Shown here: in pieces, positions 42,514 to 60,562 of the stretch
Layout: each line of letters begins with the position of its first letter
Numbering within the stretch: position 1 is the first letter of the stretch
Assembly: GCA_016867835.1 (NCBI GenBank)
Contig: VGIQ01000002.1
Span: forward strand, 2,953 to 66,952
Reading direction: 5' to 3'
Source: Calditrichota bacterium
GTDB lineage: Bacteria; Electryoneota; AABM5-125-24; Hatepunaeales; Hatepunaeaceae
DNA: 64,000 nucleotides
Translations under genes and position numbers: made by a program
The notes under the pieces: model-generated
Told to the model about the DNA's origin: nothing
What the model saw: the letters and a program-made list of their open reading frames with translations, nothing else
Databases searched by the model: none

Positions 42514-45500
42514 CTGACTTACGTGCTGGAACGGTTGCGGGATAGCCATTCTCTTCGATCTTCACCGACACGAGCCGCGACGTCCCGTCGTCGTTAAGGG
42601 TCACCCCGAAGAGGCAGTCGGCCGCCTCCATCGTCCGCTTGTTATGGGTTACGATAAGGAACTGCGTATCGGTGGAGAACCGGCGAACGATGCGGTTGAA
42701 GCGGCCGATATTGGCGTCGTCGAGGGGCGCATCGACCTCGTCGAGGATGCAGAAGGGGCTGGGGCGCTCGCGGTAAATGGCGAAGAGGAAGGCAATGGCG
42801 GTGAGCGCTTTCTCGCCGCCGGAGAGCATCGACAGGCTTTGCATCTTCTTGCCGGTCGGGGTAGCCCAGATGCGGACATCGGCTTCGAGCGGGTCATCGC
42901 CGACGAGGCTAAGCCGCGCTTCACCGCCTTCGAAGAGACTCCGGAAGAGGTCTTGAAAGTGGCGGTCGATGCGGTCGAAGGTCTCGCGCAGGCGGCGGCG
43001 CGCTTCGCTGTTGATGCGGGTGATCGTCTCTTCCAGCAGTTCGATGCCGCTTTCGAGGTCTTTCTTTTGATCGCCCAGAAATTTATATCGTTCCTCGACG
43101 TCCTTCAACTCTTCGAGCGCCAGCATGTTGACGGGCCCGACCGATTGCATCCGCACCTTGATCTGATCGACCGAAAGACTGCCGAGTTCCATCCCGTCGA
43201 GTTCCATCTGCGCCTGAGCGGTTGTTTCGGCAGTGATCGAGTCGGGATCGATGCGGGCGTCTTCGGTCAGGCGGCGGTCGATTTCACGGAGACGCTCCCG
43301 GCTGGAGACGGCTTCGAGTTCGAGGTCCGTCCGGGCGGAGGCAAGCGATTTCTGTTGATCTTGCAATTGCTTAAGGGCGGCGTTCAAGCGGTCGCGGTCG
43401 CGCTTGACGGCATCGCGCTCCTGACGGTTGGTTTCGAGACGGACGGACTCCTCACTCTTCTCGCTCTTAAGCAAGTCGAGTTGCCCGGATAGACTTTCGA
43501 GCGCCTGCCGGGTTTGCGTTATCTCACTTTCAAGCCCGGCGAACCCCGCTTCCAAGTGGCCAAGTGCGGTTCCGATCTCACGCCGTTCCAGTTCGGTGCG
43601 CACCACGGCACTGCGCTGAGCCGCGATCCGCTCGCCCAGACGGGCGCGCTCTGCAGCGGCGGCATCGCGTCGGTCGGCGAGGGACCCTTGCTCCTGCTCG
43701 ATGTTGCTCAGGCGTTCGGCAGCGGCATCGAAGTCCTGGCGCAGTTGCGCGAGGCGCTCGTCGTCGATCCCATTTGCGTCATCCGACAGGGGGGGGAGTT
43801 CCTCGAGGAGTCGGCGCAGGCGTTCTTCTTCGTGAGATGCTTCGGCGATCTGTCTTTCGAGGAGGTCTTTGTCGGCTATGAGTGAGACAACTTGCCGGCC
43901 TGTCTGATCCAGTCTGTCGGCTGCATCGCGAAGCCGGCGACGAGCCTTATCGAGTGCTTCCGCAGCCTGCTCCTGTGCCGCGCTTGCGGTCTGGAAGGAC
44001 TTTCCGGACACTTCAGCCGCATTTTGGGCGGTAGAAAGTCGCTTCTTCGCTTCGCGCAGCCGGGCATTCCAGCCGACGCGGAGGGATTCCGGATCGAGAG
44101 CCTCGCGGCGCAGGATGCCGTCCGGATCGAGGATGACGCCGTCGCGTCCGACAAGGCAGACCCGATTCTTCGCCGCCCAGCCGGAAAGACGTTCGATAGC
44201 GGCGACGTCCTTTACGATCAAGGTGCGCCCGAGCCGGTGTTTAAGGAACGTTCCGAATGCGCCGTCGTTTCGAACCGCTTCAGAGGCCGGGACAGCGTCG
44301 GCTCCATCCGGCAGCGACAGCGGGGGCGGAGGCGGCGCTTCATGGAGTAGCGGCAGTTGAACCACCAGTGCGCCCTCCCTGGCGGCACGGATCCAGCCGA
44401 AGCCTTCGTCCGGGGAGTCGGCTTCGAGGGCTTCGAGGATCGGTCGCAGCGCGGCGGCGAGCGCCGTCCGGTCTTCTTCCTGGCACTCGAGCCGGGAGGC
44501 GAGCGAGCGGAGTTCGCGACTCGCCAGCGTCGCATGCAGCGCAGTCGGGAGCGAGGCTGCGCTCATTAGGCGAACCTCAAGGCTCTCGACCTCGCTCCGG
44601 GCAGCCTCCAATGCAGAGGCTGCACCACGCAGTTTAGTTTGCGCCTCGCGTCCGGCTTGCTCCCGTTCGGCAAACTCCGTTTGCAGGCGGGCGACCGCAT
44701 CCCGGGAGGCTGTCGCTTCCTCCTGCCGGGTGCGCAGGTCACTTTTGGCAGATTGGAGGTCTCGGGATACAACCTCGAGGCGGGTTACGGCGGGACGATG
44801 TCGTTCGACGACCAAAGTCAGGTCGCGCTCCAGCGCAGATCGTCGGGCAGCCGTTTGACGAGCCGTCTCACGAGCGCTCGCGAGGCTCTGCTCCAGGTCG
44901 TGAAAGGCGCGGCGGGTGCGGTCATAAGCCTCGCGCGCCGAAGCGAGTTGCGCTGCCATCTCCCGCGATAGCGCGGTTAGTTGCTCGTATTCGGCTTCCC
45001 GAGTCGTGAGGTCTTCGGTCAGCGTTAAAGTGTCGCCCTCTGAATCACCGGCCGCCAGAGATTCGAGTCGCGCCTTCAACGTTGTGCGGCGATCGTGGTC
45101 GGCGGCGCGACGCGCTTCGAGGTGTTCGAGACGCTGCCGGACAAGGGCCAGTTCGCCCTCCAACTCGGCTTCGCGACGTTCCAGTTTGCGCGTCGCGTCA
45201 AGCCCCCGTCCGATGCGGTCGTTCAAGATGAGGTCTTTGCTTTCGAGAGCGAGAACCTCCGCCGTCGTGCGGGTTAACTCCGCTTCGACACGGGACGCTT
45301 CGCTTTCGATTTCAGCCAGACGCCCGCTGTAGCGATCCCGGATTTCGACCAACCGGAGCCGTTCGGCAGCCAGTTCGACCAAGAGACGCAGTTCGAGGGC
45401 GCGCTGGAGTGACTGGTGCCGCTTGGCGCGGGAGGCTTGACGCTTGAGGGTGCCGTAACTCTTCTCGACTTCGAGGAAGAGGTCGTTGATGCGGAGGAGT

Positions 45501-46060
45501 GATTCGCGAGTCGTCTTGAGGCGGCTTTCCGCGGCGGCGCGGCGTGACTTGTAATGCGAAATGCCGGCGGCTTCCTCGACCAGGCCCCGGCGCGCCTCGT
45601 GCGAGCCGGAGATGATCCCATCGACCATTGGCAGTTCCATTATCGAGTAGGTGTGCGGGCCGAGGCCGGTGTCGGTGAAGAGGGCTTGAATGTCGCGCAG
45701 GCGGGAGGCATCCCGGTTTATCAGGTATTCCGACTCGCCGGAGCGGAAGAGGCGCCGCGTCAGAGCAACCTCACTGTATGGCGCCGGAAGGATGCCCTTG
45801 TCGTTGTCGAGAGTCAACGTAACTTCGGCCATCCCGAGCGGACGCCGCTTGGCGGTCCCGGCAAAGATAACCGACTCCATCCGCTCGGCCCGGAGCGCGC
45901 CGGAGCGCTGCTCGCCCAGAACCCAGCGGACGGCATCGACGATGTTGGTCTTACCGCAGCCGTTCGGGCCGACGACCGCCATGATCCCGGGACGGAACTC
46001 GAGCACCGTCCGGGCGGCGAAGGACTTGAAGCCGGTCATTTCGAGCCGGTTAATGAACAA
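42506..46060 (-). CDS. smc: Chromosome segregation protein SMC.
   Basis: 1184 aa. The N-terminus MFINRLEMTGFKSFA...AVVGPNGCGKTNIVDAVRWVLGEQ carries Walker A. It has long coiled coils and a hinge. The C-terminus has LSGGEKALTAIAFLFAIY and FCILDEVDAPLDDANI. Confidence 0.9.
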   Translation of the reverse strand: MFINRLEMTGFKSFAARTVLEFRPGIMAVVGPNGCGKTNIVDAVRWVLGEQRSGALRAERMESVIFAGTAKRRPLGMAEVTLTLDNDKGILPAPYSEVALTRRLFRSGESEYLINRDASRLRDIQALFTDTGLGPHTYSIMELPMVDGIISGSHEARRGLVEEAAGISHYKSRRAAAESRLKTTRESLLRINDLFLEVEKSYGTLKRQASRAKRHQSLQRALELRLLVELAAERLRLVEIRDRYSGRLAEIESEASRVEAELTRTTAEVLALESKDLILNDRIGRGLDATRKLERREAELEGELALVRQRLEHLEARRAADHDRRTTLKARLESLAAGDSEGDTLTLTEDLTTREAEYEQLTALSREMAAQLASAREAYDRTRRAFHDLEQSLASARETARQTAARRSALERDLTLVVERHRPAVTRLEVVSRDLQSAKSDLRTRQEEATASRDAVARLQTEFAEREQAGREAQTKLRGAASALEAARSEVESLEVRLMSAASLPTALHATLASRELRSLASRLECQEEDRTALAAALRPILEALEADSPDEGFGWIRAAREGALVVQLPLLHEAPPPPPLSLPDGADAVPASEAVRNDGAFGTFLKHRLGRTLIVKDVAAIERLSGWAAKNRVCLVGRDGVILDPDGILRREALDPESLRVGWNARLREAKKRLSTAQNAAEVSGKSFQTASAAQEQAAEALDKARRRLRDAADRLDQTGRQVVSLIADKDLLERQIAEASHEEERLRRLLEELPPLSDDANGIDDERLAQLRQDFDAAAERLSNIEQEQGSLADRRDAAAAERARLGERIAAQRSAVVRTELERREIGTALGHLEAGFAGLESEITQTRQALESLSGQLDLLKSEKSEESVRLETNRQERDAVKRDRDRLNAALKQLQDQQKSLASARTDLELEAVSSRERLREIDRRLTEDARIDPDSITAETTAQAQMELDGMELGSLSVDQIKVRMQSVGPVNMLALEELKDVEERYKFLGDQKKDLESGIELLEETITRINSEARRRLRETFDRIDRHFQDLFRSLFEGGEARLSLVGDDPLEADVRIWATPTGKKMQSLSMLSGGEKALTAIAFLFAIYRERPSPFCILDEVDAPLDDANIGRFNRIVRRFSTDTQFLIVTHNKRTMEAADCLFGVTLNDDGTSRLVSVKIEENGYPATVPARKSDE

Positions 46061-46225
46061 GGCTTGGGGCTTTGGGGTGTAGGTTAGGAGTAAAGGCGCC
46101 TGCGCCAGCGCAGATTATCATTCAATATAACGCCGGGTGCCGGTTCAATCAACCCGATGCGGTTGCAGGTGGAAGCCTGAAACGGCTATATTAAAGGTTT
46201 GTAACCTAATCCGGCGGTAAGTGTG

Positions 46226-46278
46226 CCGTCGGATGTCCCCATCCGACGGTGGAGCGGTCAGATGAGGACATCTGACCG
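46226..46278 (+). promoter_or_regulatory. Two adjacent stable hairpins in the smc/gyrA divergent intergenic region, in the putative gyrA leader.
   Basis: CCGTCGGATG-tccc-CATCCGACGG (10-bp stem, 46226-46249) and GGTCAGATG-agga-CATCTGACC (9-bp stem, 46257-46278). They lie ~140-190 nt upstream of the gyrA ATG. Confidence 0.35.
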
Positions 46279-46415
46279 CACAATTGGCTTCCACCCCAGA
46301 GGTGAAAGCAGCAAACGCCTATCGCTGGATCAGGGGTCTGTATAGGATCGGGAGGGCTTCTCTTCGGTCTCACATCAGAAATAGACGAACGCCTCGAGAA
46401 CAAGACAATCCGCGA

Positions 46416-48965
46416 ATGAATATCATCCAAGGGGAGCGGATCATACCGCGGCCGATCGAAGACGAGATGCGGGACAGTTATCTCGACTATTCGATGTCGG
46501 TCATCGTCCAGCGCGCCCTCCCCGACGTCCGGGACGGCTTGAAGCCGGTCCATCGCCGCATCCTCTACGGAATGAACGAACTCGGTCTTGGACCGGGACG
46601 GCCCTATAAGAAGTCGGCGCGCATCGTCGGCGATGTGATGGGTAAGTATCACCCTCACGGCGATGCAGCAATCTATGATGCCCTCGTCCGGATGGTGCAG
46701 ACCTTTTCCATGCGGGCGCCGCTCATCGACGGGCAGGGGAACTTTGGATCGGTCGATGGCGACAGCCCGGCAGCGATGCGATACACCGAGGCGCGGATGG
46801 AGCGCCTTGCCGACGAGTTACTGGCCGACATAGAGAAGGAGACCGTCCCCTTTACCGGCAACTACGACGACACGCTCCAGGAGCCAGTCGTCCTGCCGGC
46901 GAAGTTCCCGAACCTGCTGGTCAACGGCTCGTCCGGTATCGCAGTCGGAATGGCGACCAACATCCCTCCCCACAACCTGGGCGAGATCATCGACGCTCTC
47001 GAAGCGCTGATCGAGGATCCCAGCCTGCCGGTCGTCAACCCCGAAGAGCCTGAACGGGCGATCTTCAACTTGCGCGACTTCAGGAAAGGACTGGTGCAAG
47101 GCCCCGACTTCCCGACCGGCGGCATCATCTACGGCATCGAAGGCGTCCGGGACTATCTGACAACCGGACGAGGCCGGGTTACCGTCCGGGCCAAAGCGAC
47201 CGTCGAGACCCCCAAGAACGCCCGCGAGCGGATCGTCGTCGTCGAAATCCCCTATCAGGTTGACAAGACGCGCCTGATCGAGAAGACTGCCGAACTGATC
47301 AACGACAAGAAGATCGAAGGCATCGCCGACATTCGCGATGAGTCGGACCGCGACGGCATGCGGATCGTCTATGAACTGAAGCGCGACGCCGTGCCCGAGG
47401 TGGTGCTTAACAACCTCTATGCCCACACCCAGTTGCAGACCACCTTCGGGGTCATAATGCTGGCGCTGGTGGGCGGAGTTCCGAAGGTGATCGACATCAA
47501 GCGGGCGCTCGAGGAATACCTCAAGCACCGCCACGAGGTCGTAACAAAGCGGACCGAATACGATCTGCGGAAGGCAAAGGAACGGGAGCACATCTTCGAG
47601 GGGCTTAAGATCGCCGTCGATAACCTCGACGAGGTGATCGAGATAATCCGCTCGTCGAAGGAGCCGTCCGAAGCGCGGAGCCGGTTGATGACGCGATTCG
47701 GCCTCTCGGAGATTCAGGCGAAGGAGATCCTCGATATGCGCCTGGCGCGGCTCACCGGCCTCGAACGGCAGGCGATAATCGACGAACTGCGTCAGATCAA
47801 GGAACTGATTTTCGACCTCGAAGGGATCCTCGGGTCGAAGGAACGGCGGATGATGATCGTGAAGGAGGAGTTGCTCGACATCAAGGTGCGCTATGCCGAC
47901 GACCGACGCACCGAGATCGTCCCCGAAACGGGCAGTTTCACGATTGAGGATATGATCGCCGAAGAGGATATGGTGATCACGGTGACCAAGACCGGCTATA
48001 TCAAGCGCTTCCCGGTCTCGGGCTACCGGCGTCAGCGGCGCGGCGGAAAGGGCTTGTCGGGACATACTCCGCGCGAGGAAGACGCCATCCAGCACCTCTT
48101 CGTCGCTTCGACGCACAACTACATCCTCTTCTTCACCGACCGCGGGCAGTGCCATTGGCTGAAGGTGCATGAGATTCCGTCGCTGGGAAGGGTAGCGCGC
48201 GGCAAGCCGATCGTCAACCTGATCGACATCGCTCCCGGCGAGCAGATCGCCGCGCTGGTCAATGTGGCGAAGTTCGACTCCGGGCACTATCTTCTCTTTT
48301 GCACCCGGAGCGGGACGGTTAAGAAGACGCCGCTCGACGCCTACTCCAATCCCCGGCGCGGCGGCATCCGGGCTATCAGCGTCGATGCCGACGACGCGCT
48401 GACGGGCGTCGATCTGACCGACGGCAAATGCGACATCGTGCTCGGCGCATCGAACGGCAAGGCGGTGCGGTTCAACGAATCCGACGCCAGGCCGATGGGA
48501 CGAACCGCAGCGGGGGTCATCGGGATGCGGCTCGGACCGGGCGACCGGATTGTGGGGATGGTCGTCGCCCGCCGGGAAGGGACGCTGATGGTGGTGAGCG
48601 AAAAGGGCTACGGCAAGCGCTCGCCGCTGCACGAATACCGTCTGACCCGACGGGGCGCTTCGGGCGTCAAAGCGATGAACACGACGCCGATTACGGGGCC
48701 GCTTATCGCACTGATGGAGGTAACCGACTCCGACGACCTGCTGATCATAACCAGTTCGGGCATTGTCATCCGGCAGCCGGTGTCGGCGATTCGCTCGATC
48801 GGCCGGGTGACACGCGGCGTCCGGCTGATCAATCTGAACCGCGAAGACGGGGCACTCGACACCATCGCCGATATATCGAAGGTGGTGCGGGAGGACGACG
48901 AGGGCGAGACTGACGACGCCCTCATCGGCCTGGACGAGGAACAGAGCGGTTTGTTCGGGGAGTAA
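46416..48965 (+). CDS. gyrA: DNA gyrase subunit A.
   Basis: The ATG at 46416 gives [53 protein letters not shown]...[10 protein letters not shown] (active-site Tyr region). It has the GyrA-box QRRGGKG and C-terminal beta-pinwheel repeats. The track ORF starts 132 nt upstream. Confidence 0.95.
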
Positions 48966-49123
48966 ACCGGCACTCTGCGGACTTTGCGTCTCTGCGTGAG
49001 ATTATTCATGTGGCTTTGGCAGCTTTGAGCGAGCAGATCCCGCGGTCGCGCTTCATACACCAACACCAGAAGACAAATTGATTCTCCTTATCCAGCGATG
49101 ACCGATGGTAGCCTTCACCCGGC

Positions 49124-49223
49124 GGGTGTTCTCTGTAGCGCCGCCATCTTGGCGGCAAGTCGAAGCCAGCAACGGGTGTTCTTTGTAGCGCCGCCATCTT
49201 GGCGGCAAGTCGAAGCCAGCAAG
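49124..49223. repeat. 2 x 50-bp tandem direct repeat, each unit containing the hairpin GCCGCCA-tct-TGGCGGC.
   Basis: GGGTGTTCTCTGTAGCGCCGCCATCTTGGCGGCAAGTCGAAGCCAGCAAC at 49124-49173 is repeated at 49174-49223 with 2 mismatches. It lies ~160 nt 3' of gyrA. Confidence 0.7.
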
Positions 49224-49407
49224 ATGCTGGCGCTACGGTATCGCGGGATTAGGATAATACGATTGCAGCGAACTATGGCGGGAAACACGTCCTCGAAGGT
49301 CCGCTAAGGATGCCCCATGAAAGTCCGGTCATGATTCGTTCGATCTGGCTGATCCCCGTTGGATCAGCAGTTCCGATTCTCATATCTGCTTATCCCGCAG
49401 AGAAAAA

Positions 49408-49635
49408 ATGATAGGAGAATTCGCAATAGTCGCCCTACTTAAGGATCTGCCCGAATATGGACTGGAAGAAGGTGACTTGGGCACCGTAGTGCATATTTAT
49501 GATGGCGGTGAGGCGTTTGAAGTGGAATTCATGACCTTCGACGGCAACACCATCGCAGTGGCGACGATCGAAGCCTTCAAATTGCATCCAGTGGGACCCG
49601 ACGAAGTGCCGAGATCGCGGCATCTGGTAGCCTAA
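49408..49635 (+). CDS. Small DUF4926-like protein.
   Basis: 75 aa: MIGEFAIVALLKDLPEYGLEEGDLGTVVHIYDGGEAFEVEFMTFDGNTIAVATIEAFKL. The family assignment is from memory of the DUF4926 pattern. Its TAA stop overlaps the tyrS ATG (TAATG). Confidence 0.45.
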   Translation: MIGEFAIVALLKDLPEYGLEEGDLGTVVHIYDGGEAFEVEFMTFDGNTIAVATIEAFKLHPVGPDEVPRSRHLVA

Positions 49636-50867
49636 TGCCCTTCCTGCCACCTGAAGAACAACTGAGGATCCTGAAGGATGCCGTTCCGCCGGTCGAGATC
49701 ATCGACGAGGCCGAACTGCTCTCCAAACTGGAGCGTTCCTTTGCGTCCGGCAAGCCTTTGCGAATCAAACAAGGCTTCGATGCCTCCGCTCCTGACCTGC
49801 ACATCGGCCACGCGGTGTCGCTTTGGAAGTTGCGCGCGTTTCAGGACCTTGGGCACAAGGTGATCTTCCTGATCGGCGACTTCACGGCGATGATCGGCGA
49901 CCCATCGGGGAAGTCGAAAACGCGGCCCCGCCTCTCTCGGGAGGAAGTGCTTGTCAACTCCGAAACCTACCGGCAGCAGGTATTTCGCATCCTGCGTGAC
50001 GACCCGGAGGTGCTCGAAGTCCGCTTCAACAGCGAGTGGCATGCGAAGCGGGACGTCTATCAGTTCCTCGAACTGGCGAGCCGCCGGACGGTGGCGCGGA
50101 TACTTGAGCGGGACGACTTTATGAAGCGGTTCCAGGCGCAGGAGGATATATCGCTCCTGGAGTTCCTCTACCCGCTGGTCCAGGCTTATGACTCGGTGGC
50201 GCTCGAAGCCGATGTCGAGTTGGGTGGCATGGATCAGAAGTTCAACCTCGTCCTGGCGCGGCAGATACAAAGGTCTTATGGGCAGGAACCGCAGGTGCTC
50301 TTCCTGATGCCGCTACTGAAAGGATTGGACGGCAACGAGAAGATGTCGAAGAGCCTCGGCAACTACATCGGCGTAACCGATACCGCGGACGACATCTACG
50401 GCAAGGTGATGAGCATCCCGGACAGTTTGCTGGAGGAATACTTCGTGTTGGCGTCGGGGCTTGGCAGCGTGGAAGCCCGGTCGGTGGTACGGGAGGACCC
50501 TTACCAGGCCAAGCACCGTCTGGCGCACCTTATCACGGCGCGTTACTGCGGCGAAGAGGCGGCACAGAAGGCGGGGGAGGGGTTTCGCGCGAGGTTCAAG
50601 GAGGGCAAACCGCCGGAGTTTAAGGAACTCGAAGACCAGAACCGGGTCTGTCTCTGTGAGCCCGGTGAGAAGGTATATTTACCTCGAATCATGCAGGACT
50701 TCGGTGCCGTCTCTTCCGGAAGTGCTGCCAAGCGTCTGATCGATTCCGGTTCGGTGCGCATCGACGGGGAGAAGATTCCAGTCGGCACTTATGAGGTGGT
50801 TGCGGACGGCCATGAGCATATTGTGAAGGTCGGCAAACGCTTTTACTTCGGCTATGCTCCGAAATGA
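49635..50867 (+). CDS. tyrS: Tyrosine--tRNA ligase.
   Basis: HIGH motif in APDLHIGHAV, KMSKS motif present, and a C-terminal S4-like domain (AAKRLIDSGSVRIDGEKI). Confidence 0.9.
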   Translation: MPFLPPEEQLRILKDAVPPVEIIDEAELLSKLERSFASGKPLRIKQGFDASAPDLHIGHAVSLWKLRAFQDLGHKVIFLIGDFTAMIGDPSGKSKTRPRLSREEVLVNSETYRQQVFRILRDDPEVLEVRFNSEWHAKRDVYQFLELASRRTVARILERDDFMKRFQAQEDISLLEFLYPLVQAYDSVALEADVELGGMDQKFNLVLARQIQRSYGQEPQVLFLMPLLKGLDGNEKMSKSLGNYIGVTDTADDIYGKVMSIPDSLLEEYFVLASGLGSVEARSVVREDPYQAKHRLAHLITARYCGEEAAQKAGEGFRARFKEGKPPEFKELEDQNRVCLCEPGEKVYLPRIMQDFGAVSSGSAAKRLIDSGSVRIDGEKIPVGTYEVVADGHEHIVKVGKRFYFGYAPK

Positions 50868-51005
50868 CATGTGAATGGATTGAGAGGCCGTTGTGGGCAG
50901 GCGGGTAAGCATTCCTTATCCGGCTTTAAGCATGCCACCAGACGCCTTCGACTGGTGGCTAACGGATATTGGCTAAAGTGGGGCGAAGGCGTCCCCTTGA
51001 CACTG

Positions 51006-51481
51006 AATTGGTCGGATCGGAATCCGACCCTACGCGACAAATTGGTCGGATCGGAATCCGACCCTACGCGACAAATTGGTCGGATCGGAATCCGACCCTA
51101 CGCGACGAATTGGTCGGATCGGAATCCGACCCTACGCGACGAATTGGTCGGATCGGAATCCGACCCTACGCGACGAATTGGTCGGATCGGAATCCGACCC
51201 TACGCGATGAATTGGTCGGATCGGAATCCGACCCTACGCGACGAATTGGTCGGATCGGAATCCGACCCTATGCGACAAATTGGTCGGATCGGAATCCGAC
51301 CCTACGCGACGAATTGGTCGGATCGGAATCCGACCCTACGCGACGAATTGGTCGGATCGGAATCCGACCCTACGCGACAAATTGGTCGGATCGGAATCCG
51401 ACCCTACGCGACAAATTGGTCGGATCGGAATCCGACCCTACGCGACGAATTGGTCGGATCGGAATCCGACCCTACGCGAAA
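51006..51481. repeat. Tandem array of 14 near-identical 34-bp units, each containing a perfect 8-bp-stem hairpin.
   Basis: The unit AATTGGTCGGATCGGAATCCGACCCTACGCGAC(A/G) repeats head-to-tail with no spacers. Unit starts are 51006, 51040, ... 51448, and only 3-4 variable positions occur over 476 bp. The internal inverted repeat is GGTCGGAT-cgga-ATCCGACC. The period is not a multiple of 3, so the track ORFs 50871.., 50969..51493 and 51280..51756 across it show a 34-aa pseudo-repeat and are artefacts. A 10-bp inverted repeat GACGCCTTCG...CGAAGGCGTC lies immediately upstream at 50941-50993. Confidence 0.9.
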
Positions 51482-51494
51482 AGACACATTTGAA

Positions 51495-52853
51495 ATGGAA
51501 TCTATGCGCATGCCAATTCTCATCCTGCTTTCCCTGCTCCTCGCCGGCGCCGCCGTCGCCCACTTCGGCGCGAAGTTCGAGCCACCGGACGGACGCATCT
51601 ATCACGGCTCGGGCTGGAACTACATCGACAGCCATCGACGCTACGAGGAGATGTTCCCCGGCGACAAACGTCCGCTCATCCTGCAGACCAACGTCTCGAT
51701 TCCCGGCACCCGCGGCACCGACGTCGCTCGACTGGTGCGGGGTATGGAACAGATGATCATCCACCCCGACAGTCAGTTCGTCGAATTCAGCATGCACTGG
51801 CAGGGCCGCGACGCGGCGGTGATGCTCGACTCGATCTACGTCCATACCGACCAGTGGGATCGCTATGTCGATACCCTCGAAATCGCCTTTCGGCGGGTCA
51901 ATCGCCCCTTTTTCCTTCGCCTCGGATTCGAGTTCAACGGGGATTGGAATCCCTATCATCCTTACATCTTTCCCCAGGCTTTTCGCAAACTGGTGATCGA
52001 ACTTCGCCGCCGCGGGATCGACCAGTTCGCGACGGTCTGGTGCTACGAACCGGACGCTCCGGGCGATTTTGCAGACTCAACGCGGCAGGGCTGGAAGTGG
52101 TATCCGGGGGACGATGTCGTCGATTGGTTTGGCCTTGATCTCTTCAACCATGCGCACTTCGATCCCGCCGAGCCCGATTCGCAGCGCGGGCAACTCTCAC
52201 GCAAGGGCAAGAGCGAAGCATTCCTCAGGTTCGCCGAAACGCGGGGCAAGCCGGTCTTTCTGAACGAACTCTCGGCCATCGATATTCAGGCTACGCCCGA
52301 CTCGCTCGACGAAGATCACGCCGACGGGCGTGCCGACTGGGAGGTCTGGTTCGAACCGTTCTTCGATTTCGTCGCTGCACATCCGATCATTAAGGGCTGG
52401 AACTACATCAACGTCGATTGGAACGTCGTCGGTGACTACGGCGAGATGGGCTGGCGCGACGCGAGGCTCGAGATCAATACCTATATTCGCGAGCGTTGGG
52501 TGGCGCAGGTGTCAGGGGACCGGTTCATTCACGCCGGATGGGATATCACCCAAGACCTCGGCGTCCGGGATGGCAGGGCGCCGCTGCCTCGCTTGATGTC
52601 GTTTGAGGCCTGGCCCAATCCCTTCAACGCTCAAATGCGCATCGCGTTCGACCTACCGCATTCGGGGATCGTCAGACTTATGCTGTTCGATCCGTCCGGG
52701 CGCGAGGCAGGGACACTCCTTGGCAGCCGGTGGCTCTCTGCCGGCCGGAATGGACTCACTCTTGATGGTGGTGCGCTGCCGGCAGGCTCCTATATGCTCC
52801 GGCTCGACGCGGGAGGATGGCAGGCTGAGCGGAAGGTGGTAATGATAAAGTGA
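51495..52853 (+). CDS. Secreted glycoside hydrolase (GH26-like) with a T9SS C-terminal domain.
   Basis: The ATG at 51495 (alternatives 51504/51510) gives the MESMRMPILILLSLLLAGAAVA signal peptide. FLRLGFEFNGDWNPY resembles the GH26 RxxHExNGxW acid/base motif. WYPGDDVVDWFGLDLF resembles the GH26 nucleophile region. The CTD is AWPNPFNAQMRIAFDLPHSGIVRLMLFDPSGREAG...GSYMLRLDAGGWQAERKVVMIK. Confidence 0.5.
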   Translation: MESMRMPILILLSLLLAGAAVAHFGAKFEPPDGRIYHGSGWNYIDSHRRYEEMFPGDKRPLILQTNVSIPGTRGTDVARLVRGMEQMIIHPDSQFVEFSMHWQGRDAAVMLDSIYVHTDQWDRYVDTLEIAFRRVNRPFFLRLGFEFNGDWNPYHPYIFPQAFRKLVIELRRRGIDQFATVWCYEPDAPGDFADSTRQGWKWYPGDDVVDWFGLDLFNHAHFDPAEPDSQRGQLSRKGKSEAFLRFAETRGKPVFLNELSAIDIQATPDSLDEDHADGRADWEVWFEPFFDFVAAHPIIKGWNYINVDWNVVGDYGEMGWRDARLEINTYIRERWVAQVSGDRFIHAGWDITQDLGVRDGRAPLPRLMSFEAWPNPFNAQMRIAFDLPHSGIVRLMLFDPSGREAGTLLGSRWLSAGRNGLTLDGGALPAGSYMLRLDAGGWQAERKVVMIK

Positions 52854-53061
52854 ACGAGTGAGCGAGTGAGCGGGTAAGCGCGAAGGTGGGCAGTGACCCT
52901 TATCCGCCCGCATGCTTGAGTTCACAACCTGGCAGCATTCATTTTGCTCTCACGGGGGGTTGCATTTGGATCGACAAGTTGTTTATATTGCAGGATGATG
53001 GGAAGGTTTTCTCCGTTCATCGTTCATCAGCAACTTCGACAAGCCACGGAGGTCGTTAGGT

Positions 53062-55089
53062 ATGCGTAAGGTCCTCTTTCTTCTCTTGGCGCTCGTCCTG
53101 GCGGCAGTGCCGCTCCAGGCGCAGGAACATGGCGCGGTCGCCGGTCAGGTCGTCGGCGCCGATGGAGGCGCGATCGGGGGCGCGGTCGTTACGCTCTTCA
53201 TGAATAACCAGCGCATCGGCGAGACGGTCTCGAACGATGAAGGCCGGTTCGGGTTCGAACGCGTTCCGACCGGCGTCGGCGTCGCCTGGGCCGTCGCCAG
53301 GGACATTGGACAGGGATCGGCGCGGGTTGAGGTTGCGGCCGGCCAGGTCAGTAACATCACCATCACCATCAACGTCCAGAATGGCGGAGGGGACGCTTTT
53401 GGCAGGGTCGTCGGGCGGGTGGTCAATCAGGAAGGCGCACCCTGGGCCGGAGCGCATGTAACGCTGGCTGGAAATCAAGGCGTCGTCCAGCAGACCCGCA
53501 CCAACAACGAAGGGCATTTCGCCTTCGATCGTGTTCCGCCGGGAGTCTATGAATGCACCGCGGTCGTCGAAGGTGTCGGCCGAGCGTCGCAGCGGGTCGA
53601 ATCGGTCCGCGCCGGCGTTGCCGAAGTACGGTTGGTGATCGCTGAAGACGACAACGGCGGTGGCGGCGGCGACGACGACCAGTTCGGCCGCGTCGTCGGT
53701 ATCGTCCTGACGGCTGACGGAGCCGCCGTATCAGGTGCGGCAGTGCACCTTTTCCGGGAGAATGACCTTGCGCTGAGAACCGGCACGGACGGGCACGGAC
53801 GCTTCGTCTTTGAGCGCGTTCCGGCGGGTGACTATCGAATCATCGCCGCGCACGACCGGTTCGGTCGCGCCGATGGCGAGGTAGCCGTCGAAGGCGGCGG
53901 CGTAGCCGAAATCCGGCTTGTCCTACAGAACGACAACGGCGGTGGCGGTGACGATCAGTTTGGGCGCGTCGTCGGACGGGTAACCGATCCGGAAGGCAAT
54001 GCCTTCGCCGGTGCCGCAGTCGTCCTCCACGGCGTCAACGGCATCGCGATGCGCACCGGCACCGACGGGCAGGGCGCGTTTGTCTTCGAGCGCGTTCCGG
54101 CCGGCGTCTATGAGATCGTAGCCGACGCCGGAGACCATGGCCGGGCCGGTCAGCGCATCGATGTTGAGGCGGGGGCTGTCGTCGAAGTTCATCTGGTGAT
54201 CGAAGGCAACGGCGGCGGGGGCGACGATCAACCCGGCCGGGTCGTTGGCCAGGTGGTTAATGCCGACGGGCAGCCTCTCGGCGGCGTCAGGGTCTTCCTG
54301 GTAGGGATCAATCATCGCTTCGCTCAAGAAAGACAAGCCGACCGCGAGGGCCGGTTCGTTTTCGAGCGCGTTCCTGCCGGGCTTTATAATGTCGGAGCCG
54401 ATGCCGGTGACCACGGGCATGTAATCCAGCAGATCGAAGTGGCAGCCGGAGCGGTCGTCGAAGTGCGGCTTGTGCTTGGCCGCAACGGCGGAGGCGGCGG
54501 CGATGACGAACAACGTTACGGCCGGGTGAGCGGCGTTGTTGTCGATGGCGAAGGCAACCCCATTGAGGGAGCCATCGTCACGCTCGAAAATGACCGCCAT
54601 AATGCAGAAACCGCAACCGGCGAAGACGGGCACTTCCTCTTCCCGTGGGAGCCGGTCGGCCACTATCTGATCACGGCAACGGCCGAAGATGTCGGCGACG
54701 CCGTCGCGCGGATCGGGATTCGCGCCGGACTCGAGACGGTTGTCCGGCTGGTGATTCACAATCGCGAAGGCCTCCGGCCGGCGGGCGACCCCGAGGCGGT
54801 GAACCCGGAAGTGACTCCGCTTCCGCTTGGCACCGGGCTGGTCAGCGTCTATCCGACGCCGTTTAACCCTGCTGCCACCGTGACCGTAGTGCTGCCCATA
54901 GCCGCGAGCGGCCGGGTGGCGCTCTACGACCTCCATGGCCGCGCGGTGCAAACGCTCTACGAAGGGACGTTGCAGGCGGGTCGGAGTTCGTTCAGTCTGC
55001 CGGGGAGGAACCTCGATGCCGGGCTGTACATAGTCTCGGCGGAGACGTCGGTGGGCCGGTTCACGGCGCGGGCGGTGCTGGTTAGGTAG
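53062..55089 (+). CDS. Secreted protein of six tandem carboxypeptidase-regulatory-like (CarbopepD_reg) domains with Gly/Asp linkers and a T9SS C-terminal domain.
   Basis: MRKVLFLLLALVLAAVPLQAQ signal peptide. The six ~95-aa units each begin GRVVG(R/Q)VV..G....GA.V.L and contain T(D/N)(N/G)EG(H/R)F.FERVP.G.Y. They are separated by NGGGGDD linkers. The CTD is VSVYPTPFNPAATVTVVLPIAASGRVALYDLHGRAVQTL...GLYIVSAETSVGRFTARAVLVR. Confidence 0.7.
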   Translation: MRKVLFLLLALVLAAVPLQAQEHGAVAGQVVGADGGAIGGAVVTLFMNNQRIGETVSNDEGRFGFERVPTGVGVAWAVARDIGQGSARVEVAAGQVSNITITINVQNGGGDAFGRVVGRVVNQEGAPWAGAHVTLAGNQGVVQQTRTNNEGHFAFDRVPPGVYECTAVVEGVGRASQRVESVRAGVAEVRLVIAEDDNGGGGGDDDQFGRVVGIVLTADGAAVSGAAVHLFRENDLALRTGTDGHGRFVFERVPAGDYRIIAAHDRFGRADGEVAVEGGGVAEIRLVLQNDNGGGGDDQFGRVVGRVTDPEGNAFAGAAVVLHGVNGIAMRTGTDGQGAFVFERVPAGVYEIVADAGDHGRAGQRIDVEAGAVVEVHLVIEGNGGGGDDQPGRVVGQVVNADGQPLGGVRVFLVGINHRFAQERQADREGRFVFERVPAGLYNVGADAGDHGHVIQQIEVAAGAVVEVRLVLGRNGGGGGDDEQRYGRVSGVVVDGEGNPIEGAIVTLENDRHNAETATGEDGHFLFPWEPVGHYLITATAEDVGDAVARIGIRAGLETVVRLVIHNREGLRPAGDPEAVNPEVTPLPLGTGLVSVYPTPFNPAATVTVVLPIAASGRVALYDLHGRAVQTLYEGTLQAGRSSFSLPGRNLDAGLYIVSAETSVGRFTARAVLVR

Positions 55090-55127
55090 GTTTGGGCATC
55101 TGACACCAGACTTCAGATCCAGCCAGA

Positions 55128-55152
55128 GGGGCAGGTGGAAATCACCTGCCCC
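55128..55152 (+). terminator. Intrinsic terminator: GGGGCAGGTG-gaaat-CACCTGCCCC followed by TTTGATATT.
   Basis: A perfect 10-bp stem is read from the sequence 39 nt after the stop of 53062..55089. The T-rich tail is on the + strand. Confidence 0.6.
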
Positions 55153-55261
55153 TTTGATATTAGTGTTGGCGGATAGACCGAGACCTGGCTATAGTGACTT
55201 GAAATGCGTCTCTACAGCGTTGTGTGAGGCATCCAATGAGGGACTCAGCCCGCCTAATGTG

Positions 55262-57706
55262 TCAGCGCATCAAAACGGCCTTTACGGTGCGGGAATGGGA
55301 GCCGGTTTGAAGGCGGAGGAAAAAGATGCCGGAGGGAAGTGTGAAAGTGCTAAAGTGCGAAAGTGCGAAAGTATGGCTCCCGGGGGATAGCGGGCCGTCG
55401 TGGAGGCGGAGGATTTCCCGGCCGTCTATCGCGTAGAGGCCGATCCGGACGGGCATGAGACCCCCCACCTGCGCTCTTGGAGGGCGGACATTCTTGTCCG
55501 CCCTTAGGGCAGGCAAAAATGCCTGCCCTCCAAGATCAACTGTCACCGTCGCCTTATCGTTAAACGGATTAGGAGCAATCGTAAGCGAGAGTGGCGCGTC
55601 ATCCCCGCTTCCCCCCTCGTCATCCCCGCTTCCCGCCTCGTCATCCCCGCGCAAGCGGGGATCCAGTCCAGCACTTAGAGAATGGACATAGACAACCCAA
55701 ACTTGCACATCCTCCTCCCATTCTTCCTCGCCGACCTGCTCCCGCGCATACCCACTTACTATGTATCTGCCCGTGTCTTGAAATGAAATGGACAAAGTGG
55801 ACTCGATGGACATAGTGTCGGCTTCATTCAGCGTCCACCAGAACTGAATCGAGTCGTTGTTGGCATTGAAGGGAGTTAATTCGAAGGTCGTTTCCTGACG
55901 AGGCTCGAGGGAGATTTCAGCGAGATTCGGCTCATAAGCCCGAATGACTCCCCGCACCTGAATCGCCCATTGGACGGAATCGGCCGGCACGGGATCGACG
56001 TTCGGATCGAAGACCTTTGCTTTCAGAGCATAGCCACCCGTCCGGTCGAACGCGTAGGACCGGATTCCGATCCGGTCATCCCCTGCCACTTCCTCCCACC
56101 TCACCGCCGCTGAGTCGTAAATCATCCACTCATATCGCAGATTCTCCATATCTCCGATGTAGGCAATGGAGTCGAGGGCGAAGTCGATCTCGCTGTTGCG
56201 CTGAACGGTGAGGGATAGATGCTCAGGTGTGTACTCCACTATCAAAAGTTCCATAACAGCAACATTCCATCCAATGACGCGTGATTGCTCGCCGGAAGTA
56301 ACCCGGCACTCTATTCGTGTTTGTCCCAGTTCATCAAATTGAATGGTTGCTGATGAATCGCGATCGATCACCTGCCCAGCAGCATTCCGCCATAGATAGG
56401 ATATGGCCGCACCATTCTGGTTTCGCGCCTGCACAGCAAACGTCTGGCGCGTGCCAATCAACAGCGACAGCGTCGTATCGCGCGGTGACCATGAAATGAA
56501 CTGGGGGCCAATGACTTCGCGCTCTAATTTGATCAGCAGCCCGTTCTTGCCCTCGTTGTTGCGCTCAAAGGTGGCGGTGCCGGCACCATAGAGCGACCCA
56601 TCGCTGCCCTGAATGACCCCGCCGAAAGAATGTGACCGCCCTACCCCCTGTCCAAACCCGTTTTCGGGAAGCAGAAAGTATATTTCCTTCCAAAGTTCGT
56701 CGCCGTTGGGGCCGATACGGACTACTGCCGGGTGATGGGTGTCGCCTTGATCGCGCGGGAACCAGAAAAATCCCGCCAATATAAAGCCGCCTTCGGCTAC
56801 CCGTGCTGCCGCATTACATTGATCCATACCCCATAGTTGGCGATTGGCAAAACTGTAGCGGCGTCCCCACATTAGGTCGCCGTTGCTATCGACCAGAACC
56901 GCAGCCATATCTATTGGCTCCGGCTGTCCTCTATTATCGCCGGTAAAACCGGCGATCAGGAACTGGCCCTGGCCGGTGGAAGTCATGGTCATAGATAAGT
57001 TACTGACGTCAATCCGATAGGAATTCCACCAGATCACTTCGCCATTATCGGATCTTATTTTGAAGGCCAAGAACTGGTATCCGGGCACATTTTCAATAAG
57101 CACATCACCTCCGACAATCACTCCATCTTCGGCTTCTCGCAGGCCCACAAGATGATGTCGTGTTCCTAACGAATACTCCCGCTCCCAGATCAACTCTCCT
57201 TCACCATCGATACAAATGACCACGCCAAGATAATCGCCATTTTCAATACTGGTTATGAGAAACCGGCCATCCTTCAATTCAATTATTGCGGTTCCTCGTC
57301 CTCGACGAAATGTTCGAAACCAGATCTCCTCACCATCAGAATCTACCCGCATAACTGCAATACGATTACTGCGATCTCTATTTTCACCTATGCCAGCGCA
57401 GGCTAGGAAGTCGCCATTATCCGCCTCGATGACACTTGCCAAACTTCTCAAACCGCCCTCCGCCTCATATTGTCTATCCCATATAATTTGCCCATCATCG
57501 TCGAGTCTAAGCAATCGGCCGCAACGAACGCTGTTTCCATTGGTCGCATATCCGCTCATTATCAGACCATCGTTTGGCACAGAATAGACATCCAAAATGC
57601 CGTCATCTCCTCCCGAGTCATACATCCGCATCCATAAGGGATTTGGCTGACCAAAAGAGGCGAATGCCGTCAGGATTACAACGAATATTGAGGTATGGAC
57701 TTTCAT
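55262..57706 (-). CDS. Secreted SBBP-type beta-propeller plus Ig/PKD-like domain protein with a T9SS C-terminal domain carrying an internal insertion.
   Basis: The ATG at 57704-57706 gives the MKVHTSIFVVILTAFASFGQ signal peptide. The track ORF starts 120 nt upstream. Repeats of DG..(I/L)..GYT.......D..IW..Y type (DGLIMSGYATNGNS...DDDGQIIWDRQY; DGRFLITSIENGD...GEGELIWEREY; ...) form the propeller. Ig-like domains follow, then an acidic GSGDDE linker. The CTD APNPFNDKATVTVDL-[GGQAFLPALRADKNVRPPRAQVGGLMP]-VRIGLYAIDGREILRLHDG...GIFFLRLQTGSHSRTVKAVLMR contains a ~27-aa insertion relative to the other CTDs in this window. Confidence 0.65.
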   Translation of the reverse strand: MKVHTSIFVVILTAFASFGQPNPLWMRMYDSGGDDGILDVYSVPNDGLIMSGYATNGNSVRCGRLLRLDDDGQIIWDRQYEAEGGLRSLASVIEADNGDFLACAGIGENRDRSNRIAVMRVDSDGEEIWFRTFRRGRGTAIIELKDGRFLITSIENGDYLGVVICIDGEGELIWEREYSLGTRHHLVGLREAEDGVIVGGDVLIENVPGYQFLAFKIRSDNGEVIWWNSYRIDVSNLSMTMTSTGQGQFLIAGFTGDNRGQPEPIDMAAVLVDSNGDLMWGRRYSFANRQLWGMDQCNAAARVAEGGFILAGFFWFPRDQGDTHHPAVVRIGPNGDELWKEIYFLLPENGFGQGVGRSHSFGGVIQGSDGSLYGAGTATFERNNEGKNGLLIKLEREVIGPQFISWSPRDTTLSLLIGTRQTFAVQARNQNGAAISYLWRNAAGQVIDRDSSATIQFDELGQTRIECRVTSGEQSRVIGWNVAVMELLIVEYTPEHLSLTVQRNSEIDFALDSIAYIGDMENLRYEWMIYDSAAVRWEEVAGDDRIGIRSYAFDRTGGYALKAKVFDPNVDPVPADSVQWAIQVRGVIRAYEPNLAEISLEPRQETTFELTPFNANNDSIQFWWTLNEADTMSIESTLSISFQDTGRYIVSGYAREQVGEEEWEEDVQVWVVYVHSLSAGLDPRLRGDDEAGSGDDEGGSGDDAPLSLTIAPNPFNDKATVTVDLGGQAFLPALRADKNVRPPRAQVGGLMPVRIGLYAIDGREILRLHDGPLSPGSHTFALSHFSTFTLPSGIFFLRLQTGSHSRTVKAVLMR
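55474..55534. repeat. Compound palindromic (REP/MITE-like) element lying in frame inside the T9SS CTD coding sequence of 55262..57706.
   Basis: The outer stem is CTTGGAGGG...CCCTCCAAG (55476-55484 / 55525-55533). It encloses two hairpins: GGGCGGACA-ttct-TGTCCGCCC and AGGGCAGGCA-aaaa-TGCCTGCCCT. The GGGCAGG/CCTGCCC stem type also forms the terminator at 55128-55152. Confidence 0.55.
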
Positions 57707-57776
57707 GATGGTGATGTGCTTGATTGTGCAGTCGGGCGGGCGGGGGGCGCCCTTGGCTCCCCGCCCGCCTGTTTGC

Positions 57777-58199
57777 TTACTGACGTTCTTCGACTTTCCA
57801 GTCGAATGTCTGCGGATCCGTAGCATCGTAGGTCTGCAAATCGCCTTCTGGCTCGAAGCCGGTATAGAGACCGGAGGCGGTCAGCCGTACTTGCCAGCGG
57901 TACGAAACAGATTGGAAGTCAGCGTAGTAATCAGCCTCGATCTGAGTTGCATAGACCCAGTCGCCCCAAACACCTGGCGCGACTTCTATACGAAACTGGA
58001 CCGAGGCGTCATACTGGCCGACCCACTCTTCGTCAATTAACTCGAGAATTCGAGTCTGCAGCCGAACTGCCTGAGCATCGGATGGTGCTAGCAGTCCTAC
58101 AATAAGCAGAATTGCCGAAGCAATGAATGTGATGCGACGTAGTGTCACTGTGGAATCTCCGTTGATTGTCGTTGATGAGATTGCCTCGCCTGTCTGCAA
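57777..58199 (-). CDS. Small secreted protein of unknown function.
   Basis: 140 aa. The hydrophobic segment ITFIASAILLIVGLLAPSDAQA looks like a signal peptide. The start may be an internal GTG. I recognised no known domain. It lies 71 nt upstream of the SBBP propeller gene. Confidence 0.35.
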   Translation of the reverse strand: MQTGEAISSTTINGDSTVTLRRITFIASAILLIVGLLAPSDAQAVRLQTRILELIDEEWVGQYDASVQFRIEVAPGVWGDWVYATQIEADYYADFQSVSYRWQVRLTASGLYTGFEPEGDLQTYDATDPQTFDWKVEERQ

Positions 58200-58572
58200 C
58201 AGGCTCGCGATGACGTTGCGTCATCGCCGGATCAAACGACTACCTTACGGCGGAGCGCGGCTTCGCTGCCGTCTTAGGCGTGAGCGGCATCGCCCTCCCC
58301 CGAGTCAGGTGGAATGGGGAAGTCGAAGTTGTCGATGATGATGACGGGATCGGGATCCCGTCCAAAGCAGGGAAGGAAGAGCATCGGCGTCGGACTTAGG
58401 AATCTGCCTTAAGGAACAGTGATAGCGTCAGGTCTTAAGCAATCGTCGAAGTCCGCAAGCGGGCAGTGCAGGTCAGGATAAGATAAGCAGCAACGTGTCG
58501 ATTTGCAAGAAGATACGAGAGGAGGTTGACGTTGTTGGAGCCGGGCTAATTGGTGCGGTCGCTCCTTGCTCC

Positions 58573-59784: not shown

Positions 59785-59804
59785 AAGGGATGATTTACCG
59801 AAAG

Positions 59805-60560
59805 TTAGACTCCAAATACTTCAGAATAGAGCTGCTTTCGAGCTTGATCTTGTTCCAATTCGGCATAAATCTCGGTGATTTTTTCATAAGATAGAAAATT
59901 GACATTTGGACCAATGATGCGATACGCCTCCTTTCGTTTCTCAGATTCGAACTTTCTAAAACGATCTTGCGGTGCGACAACATTGAACTGAGTCCTAAAA
60001 TAGCGCAACTCGTCGAATTTGAGAAGAGCAGACCGAAAATCCGTTGAATGTTCGACTTCAAATATACTAATTGGATAAAGTATTGGAGGTGGATTCGAAC
60101 GAGCATCTTGGAACCAGATTACATCAAAAAATCGCGCCGACCTATCGATGATTTCATCATAAGTGAATCGAGGGCACTCGCGAACGGTGCATATATTAGC
60201 CAGTGATTTGCCATTGAATTTCTTAGACTTATCATTCGAGTATGTCTTGAACCCTTTAAACTCACCCAGTTCGAGGAGCATTCCCTGAATGTGAGTGTGT
60301 TGAAATTCCTTAAATGCAATTTGTTCGACTGGCACTGGCTCTGACACAAACGAATGCTTGGCAAGTGCATACACTCCTACTCCAATTCGCTTAAATCTTG
60401 GATCGCGCTGAACGCGCTCTTGTATAGTCTTATCTGGAGTTTTGCCTGTAAGCGAACGATATTTGAGGAATTCTTGATAGATTAATCGCAAAGATGCAAA
60501 TCCGCCATTTTCTAGCATCACTCGTTCAATGGCATCTGAGTAACTGATAGTGTTTTTCAC
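59805..60560 (-). CDS. Low-GC gene encoding an N-terminal HARE-HTH-like winged helix fused to a putative nuclease-like (PD-(D/E)xK-like?) domain.
   Basis: GTG start 2 nt after the SbcC-like stop, with a GGAGG RBS. SYSDAIERVMLENGGFASLRLIYQEFLKY...DPRFKRIGVGVYALAKH matches the HARE-HTH pattern ending F.R.G.G.Y.L. The C-terminal half has FDVIWFQD...ILYPISIFEVEHSTDFRSALLKF as a candidate catalytic beta-strand pair. Gene GC is ~42% versus ~65% in the flanks. Confidence 0.45.
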   Translation of the reverse strand: MKNTISYSDAIERVMLENGGFASLRLIYQEFLKYRSLTGKTPDKTIQERVQRDPRFKRIGVGVYALAKHSFVSEPVPVEQIAFKEFQHTHIQGMLLELGEFKGFKTYSNDKSKKFNGKSLANICTVRECPRFTYDEIIDRSARFFDVIWFQDARSNPPPILYPISIFEVEHSTDFRSALLKFDELRYFRTQFNVVAPQDRFRKFESEKRKEAYRIIGPNVNFLSYEKITEIYAELEQDQARKQLYSEVFGV

Positions 60561-60562
60561 GG

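Follow-up and report, generated by a model that had tools for sequence, protein, structure and literature searches.

Repetitive extragenic palindromic (REP) sequences are small non-autonomous elements that are bound and cut as single-stranded hairpins by REP-associated tyrosine transposases (RAYTs, also called TnpA-REP), enzymes of the HUH/Y1 type (PMC3733652, PMC8266576). A GTAG tag together with a short palindrome is the anatomy that defines the GTAG-tagged REPs, which are substrates of these transposases (PMC3733652), and GTAG and hairpin are also the determinants that RAYTs recognise on single-stranded DNA (PMC8266576). GTAG REPs are found singly, as dimers or in clusters 'reiterated in tandem', lying for the most part between genes that are unidirectional or convergent and occasionally within genes, while head-to-tail REP pairs are rare in most of the genomes surveyed (PMC3733652). 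Here we describe an array of 14 hairpin-bearing units of 34 bp in a 64,000-nt stretch of contig VGIQ01000002.1 from a Calditrichota bacterium; this whole stretch is referred to below as the window. We conclude that the array is very probably a local head-to-tail amplification of one GTAG-tagged REP variant. The arrangement is unusual but not unprecedented, since tandem reiteration of single REPs has already been documented.

The array occupies positions 51005-51480 of the window and, judged by its tag, lies on the minus strand. Tandem Repeats Finder (TRF) reported 14.0 head-to-tail copies of a 34-bp unit without indels (array 51005-51479, 97% matches, score 901). Every unit contains a perfect 8-bp stem with a 4-nt loop. 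The 20-nt palindrome, GGTCGGAT-CGGA-ATCCGACC, is free of mismatches in 14 of 14 units and absent from the remainder of the 64 kb; 0.05 matches were expected from shuffled sequence and none of 100 shuffles reached 14. These results bear out an earlier reading of the letters alone (the sequence-only reading), which had proposed a 14-copy array of 34-bp hairpin repeats at 51006-51481. Read on the minus strand, the unit is made up of a 9-nt family head that carries the unpaired GTAG (GTCGCGTAG), the 20-nt hairpin (GGTCGGAT-TCCG-ATCCGACC) and a 5-nt linker (AATTY). A hairpin scan placed the unpaired GTAG directly 5' of the hairpin on this strand. The tag is GTAG in 13 of the 14 units and ATAG in unit 8, and the extended head is conserved too. 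A single unit is predicted to fold with -12.5 to -13.1 kcal/mol as RNA and -8.5 to -8.8 kcal/mol as DNA, and the predicted RNA fold of the array is far more stable than that of shuffled sequences (z = -8.5).

The units differ from one another at three columns of the register, 1, 29 and 34. Column 1 is G in nine units and A in five, unit 8 has a T at column 29, and at column 34 there is a T in unit 6 and, at the array boundary, an A in the final unit. The sequence-only reading had counted at most four variable sites, which holds for columns; counted in bases there are seven internal substitutions in 476 nt, none of them in the hairpin. Divergence this low indicates an array that has expanded recently or is still being homogenised. 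Its first four units (1-4) match its last four (11-14) exactly, so that a 135-nt stretch at 51005 recurs unchanged at 51345, which points to blocks of several units having been duplicated during at least part of the array's growth. Unit 8 (51243-51276, minus strand) is the sole unit with a mutated tag in both the variant table and the covariance model described below; the change from GTAG to ATAG corresponds to a plus-strand CpG transition from CTACG to CTATG. All seven internal substitutions are CpG transitions in the linker or tag (five CG to CA, two CG to TG), and none of the three CpGs of the hairpin is substituted in any unit. This pattern may hint at deamination driven by cytosine methylation, combined with constraint on the hairpin or homogenisation, with weak statistics and perhaps only three independent events.

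To place the unit in a family, we scanned metagenomes with the pattern CGCGTAG-NNN-CGGATTCC-N-ATCCG. The scan returned 20 stretches, most of them from samples Ga0194127, Ga0194120, Ga0194126 and Ga0172380. In all, about 25 loci of the family (head CGCGTAG, core CGGATTCCRATCCG) were found in metagenomes in which the population of the window is also present, on contigs that are not assignable to the source genome. At least sample Ga0194127 contains the window's own population: contig L036 is 99.9% identical to window positions 54360-60887, and contig L037 is 100% identical to 51366-53248. The metagenome copies include singles, and inverted doublets in L012, L017, L023, L024 and L030. A separate scan of a genome collection, in which the loop was left free, gave nine single matches in unrelated phyla. 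One of these, L005, a metagenome-assembled genome (MAG) of Caldithrix, has the family head, the loop TCCA and further CGCGTAG hairpins around it; the other matches were taken as convergent GTAG hairpins. No blastn match was found in plasmids or phages, and viral contigs gave two matches to a 17-base pattern, which is within chance expectation. The 24-mer GTAGGGTCGGATTCCGATCCGACC had no match in the metagenomes, yet the same scan missed L037 (Ga0194127_10124245), which holds it three times, so this zero is not evidence of absence. The scanned metagenome collection is incomplete, and L037 was obtained by protein look-up (GH26 start at 51504).

One contig among the 20 stretches has an organisation of its own. 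The whole 1.36 kb of L025 (1-1356; Ga0194126_10215964) consists of tandem modules of 164-168 nt, each with three different GTAG hairpins that all point the same way. Locally, one of these REPs repeats every 34 nt, which equals the step of the array.

The stem of the family was then examined for covariation in an alignment of 19 distinct variants. The search pattern fixes the inner five stem pairs and the GTAG, leaving the three outer pairs free, and the 3' side of these outer pairs lies wholly outside the pattern. The three free pairs are paired in 53 of 57 cells, with double-sided changes in each of them, and across all eight stem pairs 97.4% of cells are paired. The covariation score was 0.270, compared with 0.083 in shuffles (reached in none of 500) and at most 0.104 in slid controls. 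These values indicate that the outer stem of the family varies by compensatory changes. GTAG is invariant across the 19 variants, as the search pattern requires.

A covariance model built from this alignment was run on the window. It matched all 14 units at full length and only on the minus strand, 13 of them with 47.8 bits and the ATAG unit 8 with 40.7, and found no inverted copy inside the array. A solitary family copy, ACGCGTAG-GACCGGAT-TCCG-ATCCGGTC, lies on the plus strand at 56050-56081 and scored 44.5 bits (E 1.3e-10). Its head and loop are those of the array and its stem carries two compensatory changes, as the hairpin scan also indicated. Beyond the array and this copy, nothing in the window scored better than E 0.03. 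The solitary copy sits in frame within the gene for an 854-aa protein (55262-57826, minus strand), where it encodes DDRIGIRSYA; the protein is beta-propeller/Ig-like with a weak, sub-threshold tail of the type IX secretion system (T9SS). Seven metagenome contigs carry homologous genes in which every base of the element is unchanged (L013, L015, L020, L022, L026, L029 and L036, the last from the same population). Homologues of about 30% identity align through the DDRIGIRSYA segment and are merely 3 residues shorter there, suggesting that the copy is not a clean insertion.

Two further places in the window carry genuine GTAG elements besides 56050-56081, one at 29067 and the other at 49135-49236. 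At 29064-29111 on the plus strand there is a REP-like element with a different, bulged hairpin (14.5 bits in the covariance model). It begins with the array's exact 11-nt head, GTCGCGTAGGG (at 29067), the sole exact match to this head outside the array in the window. The element at 49135-49236 belongs to a second GTAG-hairpin family, described further below. The sequence-only reading had named another relative, a hairpin in the gyrA leader. This hairpin (46224-46252) is real and we rejected it as a family member: it lacks the GTAG on either strand, and the model matched only its stem, on both strands and weakly (10-11 bits, E 0.3-0.5).

We also found RAYT genes in related contigs. A 148-aa gene on L017 (3021-3467) matches the NCBIfam model for REP-associated tyrosine transposases, NF047646, with 86.3 bits against a cut-off of 80, and a gene on L011 (7419-7862) matches it with 83 bits against the same cut-off; both also match PF01797. 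On either side of the L017 gene stands a repeat of about 60 nt ending in CGCGTAGCGGCGG, and the downstream repeat runs on into a full REP doublet of the family, about 180 nt downstream of the RAYT gene. L017 shares its sample of origin with L010, a contig with a tyrS 68% identical to that of the window. L011 itself carries a tyrS that is 64% identical to the window's, and its RAYT is flanked by another GTAG hairpin. Homologues of the L017 RAYT bear no informative taxonomic labels, and none is labelled Calditrichota. Judged by these matches, family members adjoin a bona fide RAYT gene in a related contig. With GTAG head, covarying hairpin, copies in the window and the metagenomes, and a RAYT neighbour in a relative, the suggestion of the sequence-only reading that a dispersed REP-like family has been amplified locally is supported.

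Two other contigs showed REPs in settings of their own. An Armatimonadota MAG (L006, 329-1529) contains REP clusters with GTAGGGTCGGAT...ATCCGACC that are arranged as doublet repeats of 70-79 nt. They flank, left and right, a stretch (776-1081) that tblastn matched weakly to the L011 RAYT (28% identity, E about 1e-6) and to which no family model was applied. The stem shared with this distant phylum is probably convergent. A CRISPR array on L016 (24-2430; Ga0194120_10028033) and L014 (Ga0194127_10091177), beside a gene with a T9SS tail, consists of 34 repeats of 37 nt (GTTGCACCCGGTCGAAAGGCCGGGTGAGGATTGAAAC). Towards the end where these repeats are degenerate, four spacers are REPs of the family of the 34-bp unit, three of them identical (AAGACGGCGGATCGGAATCCGCCGCTACGCGGAGGGC) and one a variant. 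These spacers may be self-derived, and may represent duplications or real targeting.

Several observations weigh against reading the array as an amplified, RAYT-dependent REP with an effect on RNA. Its exact stem variant, GGTCGG...CCGACC with the loop TCCG, was not found elsewhere, the nearest being L005 with the loop TCCA. A tblastn search with the relative's RAYT found no such gene in the 64-kb window, where the small open reading frames (ORFs) encode a response regulator, rubrerythrin, peroxiredoxin and similar proteins. The closest homologue on a long contig, L034 (81% identical to the L017 RAYT), is flanked by long inverted repeats and not by the array's REP. RAYT genes in such a setting are also described in the literature (PMC3733652). 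For the source organism, of which 64 kb were read, a cognate transposase and a high genome-wide copy number are presumptive. Finally, the RNA hairpin barrier is proposed by analogy. The array has the structure by which GTAG REPs are defined, whereas dispersal and the RAYT link are shown, by the comparisons above, for its relatives only.

We also asked whether the array is real. The Joint Genome Institute (JGI) contig L037, an independent assembly, matches the window with 100% identity over 1883 nt, its start lying 116 nt inside the array. It reproduces the last 3.4 units, the variant order A, A, G and the GH26 junction base for base. The tandem REP array is therefore real and present in the environment. 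As L037 breaks inside the array, and as the array contains an exact repeat of 135 nt, short reads cannot settle its length and the 14 copies are unverified. Contigs retrieved through DUF4926 end inside tyrS, short of the left edge of the array. It is somewhat unlikely, though by no means negligible, that the copy number differs from exactly 14; that there is no array whatsoever at the locus is barely conceivable. Could the array, or its length of 14 units, be the work of a short-read assembler that looped through a shorter repeat? No exact repeat inside the array exceeds 135 nt, which is near the usual maximum k-mer and read length, the independent assembly breaks within the array, and other assemblies of the population are fragmented, with two breaking in the neighbouring 50-bp repeat. 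The match of L037 to the last units and the junction, variant order included, and the irregular pattern of the seven internal variants, which is unlike a simple assembly loop, make such an artefact highly improbable.

The array lies between two genes of the same orientation. Upstream is tyrS (49635-50867, plus strand; PF00579, 6.8e-72), whose stop is 137 nt before the array; this spacer contains two ordinary hairpins. The TyrS protein is 100% identical to an NCBI entry from a Calditrichaeota MAG. Downstream is a gene for a putative secreted protein resembling glycoside hydrolase family 26 (GH26), also on the plus strand, which starts at 51504 (JGI gene call) or at an in-frame ATG at 51495 and runs to 52853. 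It thus begins 15-24 nt after the array and encodes a signal peptide. Of the flanks named in the sequence-only reading, tyrS was correct, the glycoside hydrolase assignment stands as a weak GH26 match (24.5 bits, cut-off 20.2), and the T9SS tail was not supported at threshold (TIGR04183, 16.7 against 23). Further upstream are genes for SMC (42506-46060, minus strand), gyrA (46284-48965, plus strand) and DUF4926 (49408-49635, plus strand), and further downstream is one for a six-fold CarboxypepD_reg protein with a T9SS tail (53062-55089, plus strand). The G+C content of the window is 60.7%.

As the array unit lacks stop triplets on the plus strand, a 660-aa ORF (50871-52853) crosses the array into the GH26-like gene. 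We considered the array as a coding repeat and ruled this out: the signal peptide of the downstream protein begins after the array, and the independent gene call starts at 51504. The sequence-only reading had reached the same conclusion from the period not being a multiple of three, an argument that does not suffice on its own, since a period of 34 nt can be translated as a repeat of 34 codons where the plus strand has no stop. Terminator-like sites were absent from 50868-51495 in a consensus scan, and next to the hairpin comes CUACGCGAC, without the U-run of an intrinsic terminator. No promoter-like site was found ahead of the array by scanning.

Taken together, these results suggest how the array may have arisen and what it may do. 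A single REP with about 5 nt of flanking sequence would have become a tandem repeat by slippage or unequal recombination. The array would then have been homogenised, or would have expanded recently, acquiring only CpG transitions outside the hairpin. It is probably transcribed from tyrS towards the GH26-like gene, which would give an RNA with 14 stable hairpins of about -12.5 kcal/mol each. These hairpins could act as a barrier to 3' exonucleases, stabilising the tyrS mRNA and damping or uncoupling read-through into the downstream gene, without intrinsic termination. In Escherichia coli, REPs protect mRNA 3' ends and mediate Rho-dependent attenuation, as cited in PMC2817692 and PMC5317091. By analogy, we infer that the likeliest effect of the array is stabilisation of the tyrS mRNA, with read-through into the GH26-like gene damped. 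For the array itself, the most likely status is that of selfish or neutral DNA that has these effects as by-products.

The transposase could also have built the array itself, by repeated insertion beside a recreated cleavage or target site, or by rolling-circle copying of an excised single-stranded circle. The unit is nearly all REP with a linker of only 5 nt, and on the GTAG strand a CA dinucleotide, a known RAYT cleavage site in Marinomonas (PMC8266576), is positioned right at the 3' foot of the hairpin. L025 offers a parallel, with a different REP repeated head-to-tail every 34 nt, and processing of circular intermediates has been proposed as a source of complex arrays (PMC3733652). The identical four-unit blocks at the two ends of the array are predicted by unequal recombination or slippage and not by one-by-one insertion. 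In addition, there is no RAYT nearby. We considered whether the 34-nt step could be a fixed enzymatic step, which was not supported: L025 shares it, but relatives elsewhere show head-to-tail steps of 31 and 36 nt. We regard construction of the array by a RAYT as unlikely. Equally doubtful is the broader proposal that RAYT-type enzymes of the Calditrichota lineage multiply REPs head-to-tail, through self-targeted insertion or rolling-circle concatemers of a single strand of about 34 nt, and that arrays before secreted-enzyme genes serve as tunable, length-variable dampers of expression. The four REP spacers in a CRISPR array from one of the same metagenomes would fit such active behaviour of the elements at the DNA level.

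The sequence-only reading had put forward protein binding, transcriptional insulation and a recombinogenic satellite as candidate roles. Two other explanations place the function of the array in its binding or its transcript. As a dedicated protein-binding array, its 20-bp palindromes would be operator-like sites on double-stranded DNA for a dimeric protein (a repressor, a nucleoid-associated protein or gyrase), titrating that protein or insulating tyrS from the GH26-like gene. The 14 perfect inverted repeats at regular 34-bp spacing are consistent with this, as is a hairpin core that is invariant within the array with substitutions only outside it; in E. coli, gyrase binds to BIME-2 clusters and Pol I to REPs (PMC2817692). 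Across the family, in contrast, the outer stem changes freely while pairing is kept, which points to selection for a folded single strand rather than a fixed double-stranded site. Only one side carries the conserved unpaired GTAG, units spaced 34 bp apart are out of helical phase, and no candidate regulator gene adjoins the array among the window ORFs scanned. This makes a dedicated binding array very unlikely. The array might instead be a structured RNA gene, processed into functional hairpin small RNAs in the manner of a spacer-less CRISPR-type or multi-hairpin small RNA locus. The stability of its RNA fold relative to shuffles speaks for this, and the position between co-oriented genes makes transcription likely. 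Conversely, no Rfam family reached the gathering threshold anywhere in the window, there are no spacers, and no cas domains were found among the 17 window ORFs scanned against Pfam (several large ORFs were outside that scan). With no promoter-like site before the array, and with the GTAG tag and RAYT association already accounting for its conservation, an RNA gene is extremely improbable. Local amplification of a GTAG-tagged REP variant thus remains our preferred reading.

Other repeats and hairpins were found in the window. The second GTAG-hairpin family, B, lies between gyrA and the DUF4926-tyrS pair at 49135-49236 (TRF, hairpin scan, folding). It includes two head-to-tail copies of GTAGC-GCCGCCA-TCT-TGGCGGC with a period of 50, and besides these one inverted copy with the compensated stem GCCAGCA/TGCTGGC. 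This repeat region was also delimited as 49123-49236, and two Logan assemblies of the same population start at about 49193, inside the repeat. Just upstream of the gyrA start (46224-46280) are two adjacent strong hairpins, CCGTCGGATG-TCCC-CATCCGACGG (RNA -20.2 kcal/mol) and GCGGTCAGATG-AGGA-CATCTGACCGC. These are not members of the REP family and may be a leader structure of gyrA. Upstream, three very large ORFs follow one another on the minus strand (12826-18684, 20103-28853 and 29173-34809, of 1952, 2916 and 1878 aa). The gap between two of these giant ORFs (29004-29111) contains a perfect 15-bp hairpin, GGTGGCGTGCGGACG-TCCT-CGTCCGCACGCCACC (-23.5 kcal/mol, z = -10), followed by the REP-like element with the array's head.

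These findings extend the reach of the GTAG-REP/RAYT system to Calditrichota, a phylum otherwise credited, in the literature as narrowly searched here, with an unrelated 18-nt palindrome reported from Caldithrix abyssi (PMC5317091). The array is a clean example of a purely one-directional, nearly linker-free REP array of 14 copies. Should strains differ in copy number, the locus would serve as a handy strain marker and would show naturally how REP hairpin number affects upstream mRNA stability and downstream expression. There are also practical consequences: with the plus strand of the array open in all frames, the GH26-like gene may be wrongly extended through it in automatic annotation, and short-read assemblies are interrupted at this locus. 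A head-to-tail mode of RAYT action, if true, would differ from the inverted-doublet (REPIN/BIME) mode of Proteobacteria. The array is otherwise an expected kind of bacterial repeat and reveals no new system.

We finally compared the array with the known classes of repeats. A CRISPR array needs unique spacers and the units here abut without any, as the sequence-only reading had pointed out. Intergenic minisatellites (variable number tandem repeats), such as the mycobacterial interspersed repetitive units (MIRUs), share with the array near-identical short tandem units that lie between co-transcribed genes and are hard to assemble, and their copy number is expected to vary through slippage or recombination. 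Unlike the array, MIRUs are 40-100 bp long and have neither the GTAG-hairpin anatomy nor an association with a transposase. REPINs, the inverted REP doublets described by Bertels and Rainey (RAREFAN preprint, 10.1101/2022.05.22.493013), share the element class and the presumed mobilising enzyme. Relatives of the array's family do form inverted doublets (L012, L017, L023, L024 and L030), but the array has no inverted partner and is therefore neither a REPIN nor a chain of REPINs. Also comparable are the BIME-2 and atypical bacterial interspersed mosaic elements (BIMEs) of E. coli and the SMAG clusters of Stenotrophomonas, which are tandem intergenic REP clusters (up to about a dozen) downstream of a gene, and are candidate mRNA 3'-end stabilisers and gyrase-binding sites. 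In BIMEs the REPs alternate in orientation with defined linkers, whereas all units of the array have one orientation.

The most extensive likeness is to the GTAG-tagged REP super-family (Di Nocera, De Gregorio and Rocco 2013, PMC3733652; REP/REPtron). The sequence-only reading had allowed that the unit might belong to a REP or BIME family already characterised. By kind it does, as a GTAG-tagged REP, while the particular sequence family (head CGCGTAG, core CGGATTCCRATCCG) was not found described, and neither was Calditrichota as a host phylum, in a narrow search of the literature. Shared with the super-family are the GTAG at one end of a 20-nt palindrome and the dimensions of the hairpin, whose stem of 8 bp and loop of 4 nt fit the ranges reported (palindromes of 20-50 nt, stems of 6-13 bp). 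Sub-families with complementary stem changes, occasional intragenic copies and tandem clusters of singletons are likewise common to both, as are a position mostly between co-oriented genes, which the array also has, and a RAYT gene flanked by family members, here in relatives. The array differs in that all 14 copies point one way with a 5-nt linker and that no RAYT is present in its 64-kb window. We conclude that the array is ordinary in kind, its one-directional layout of 14 copies being its only unusual trait.

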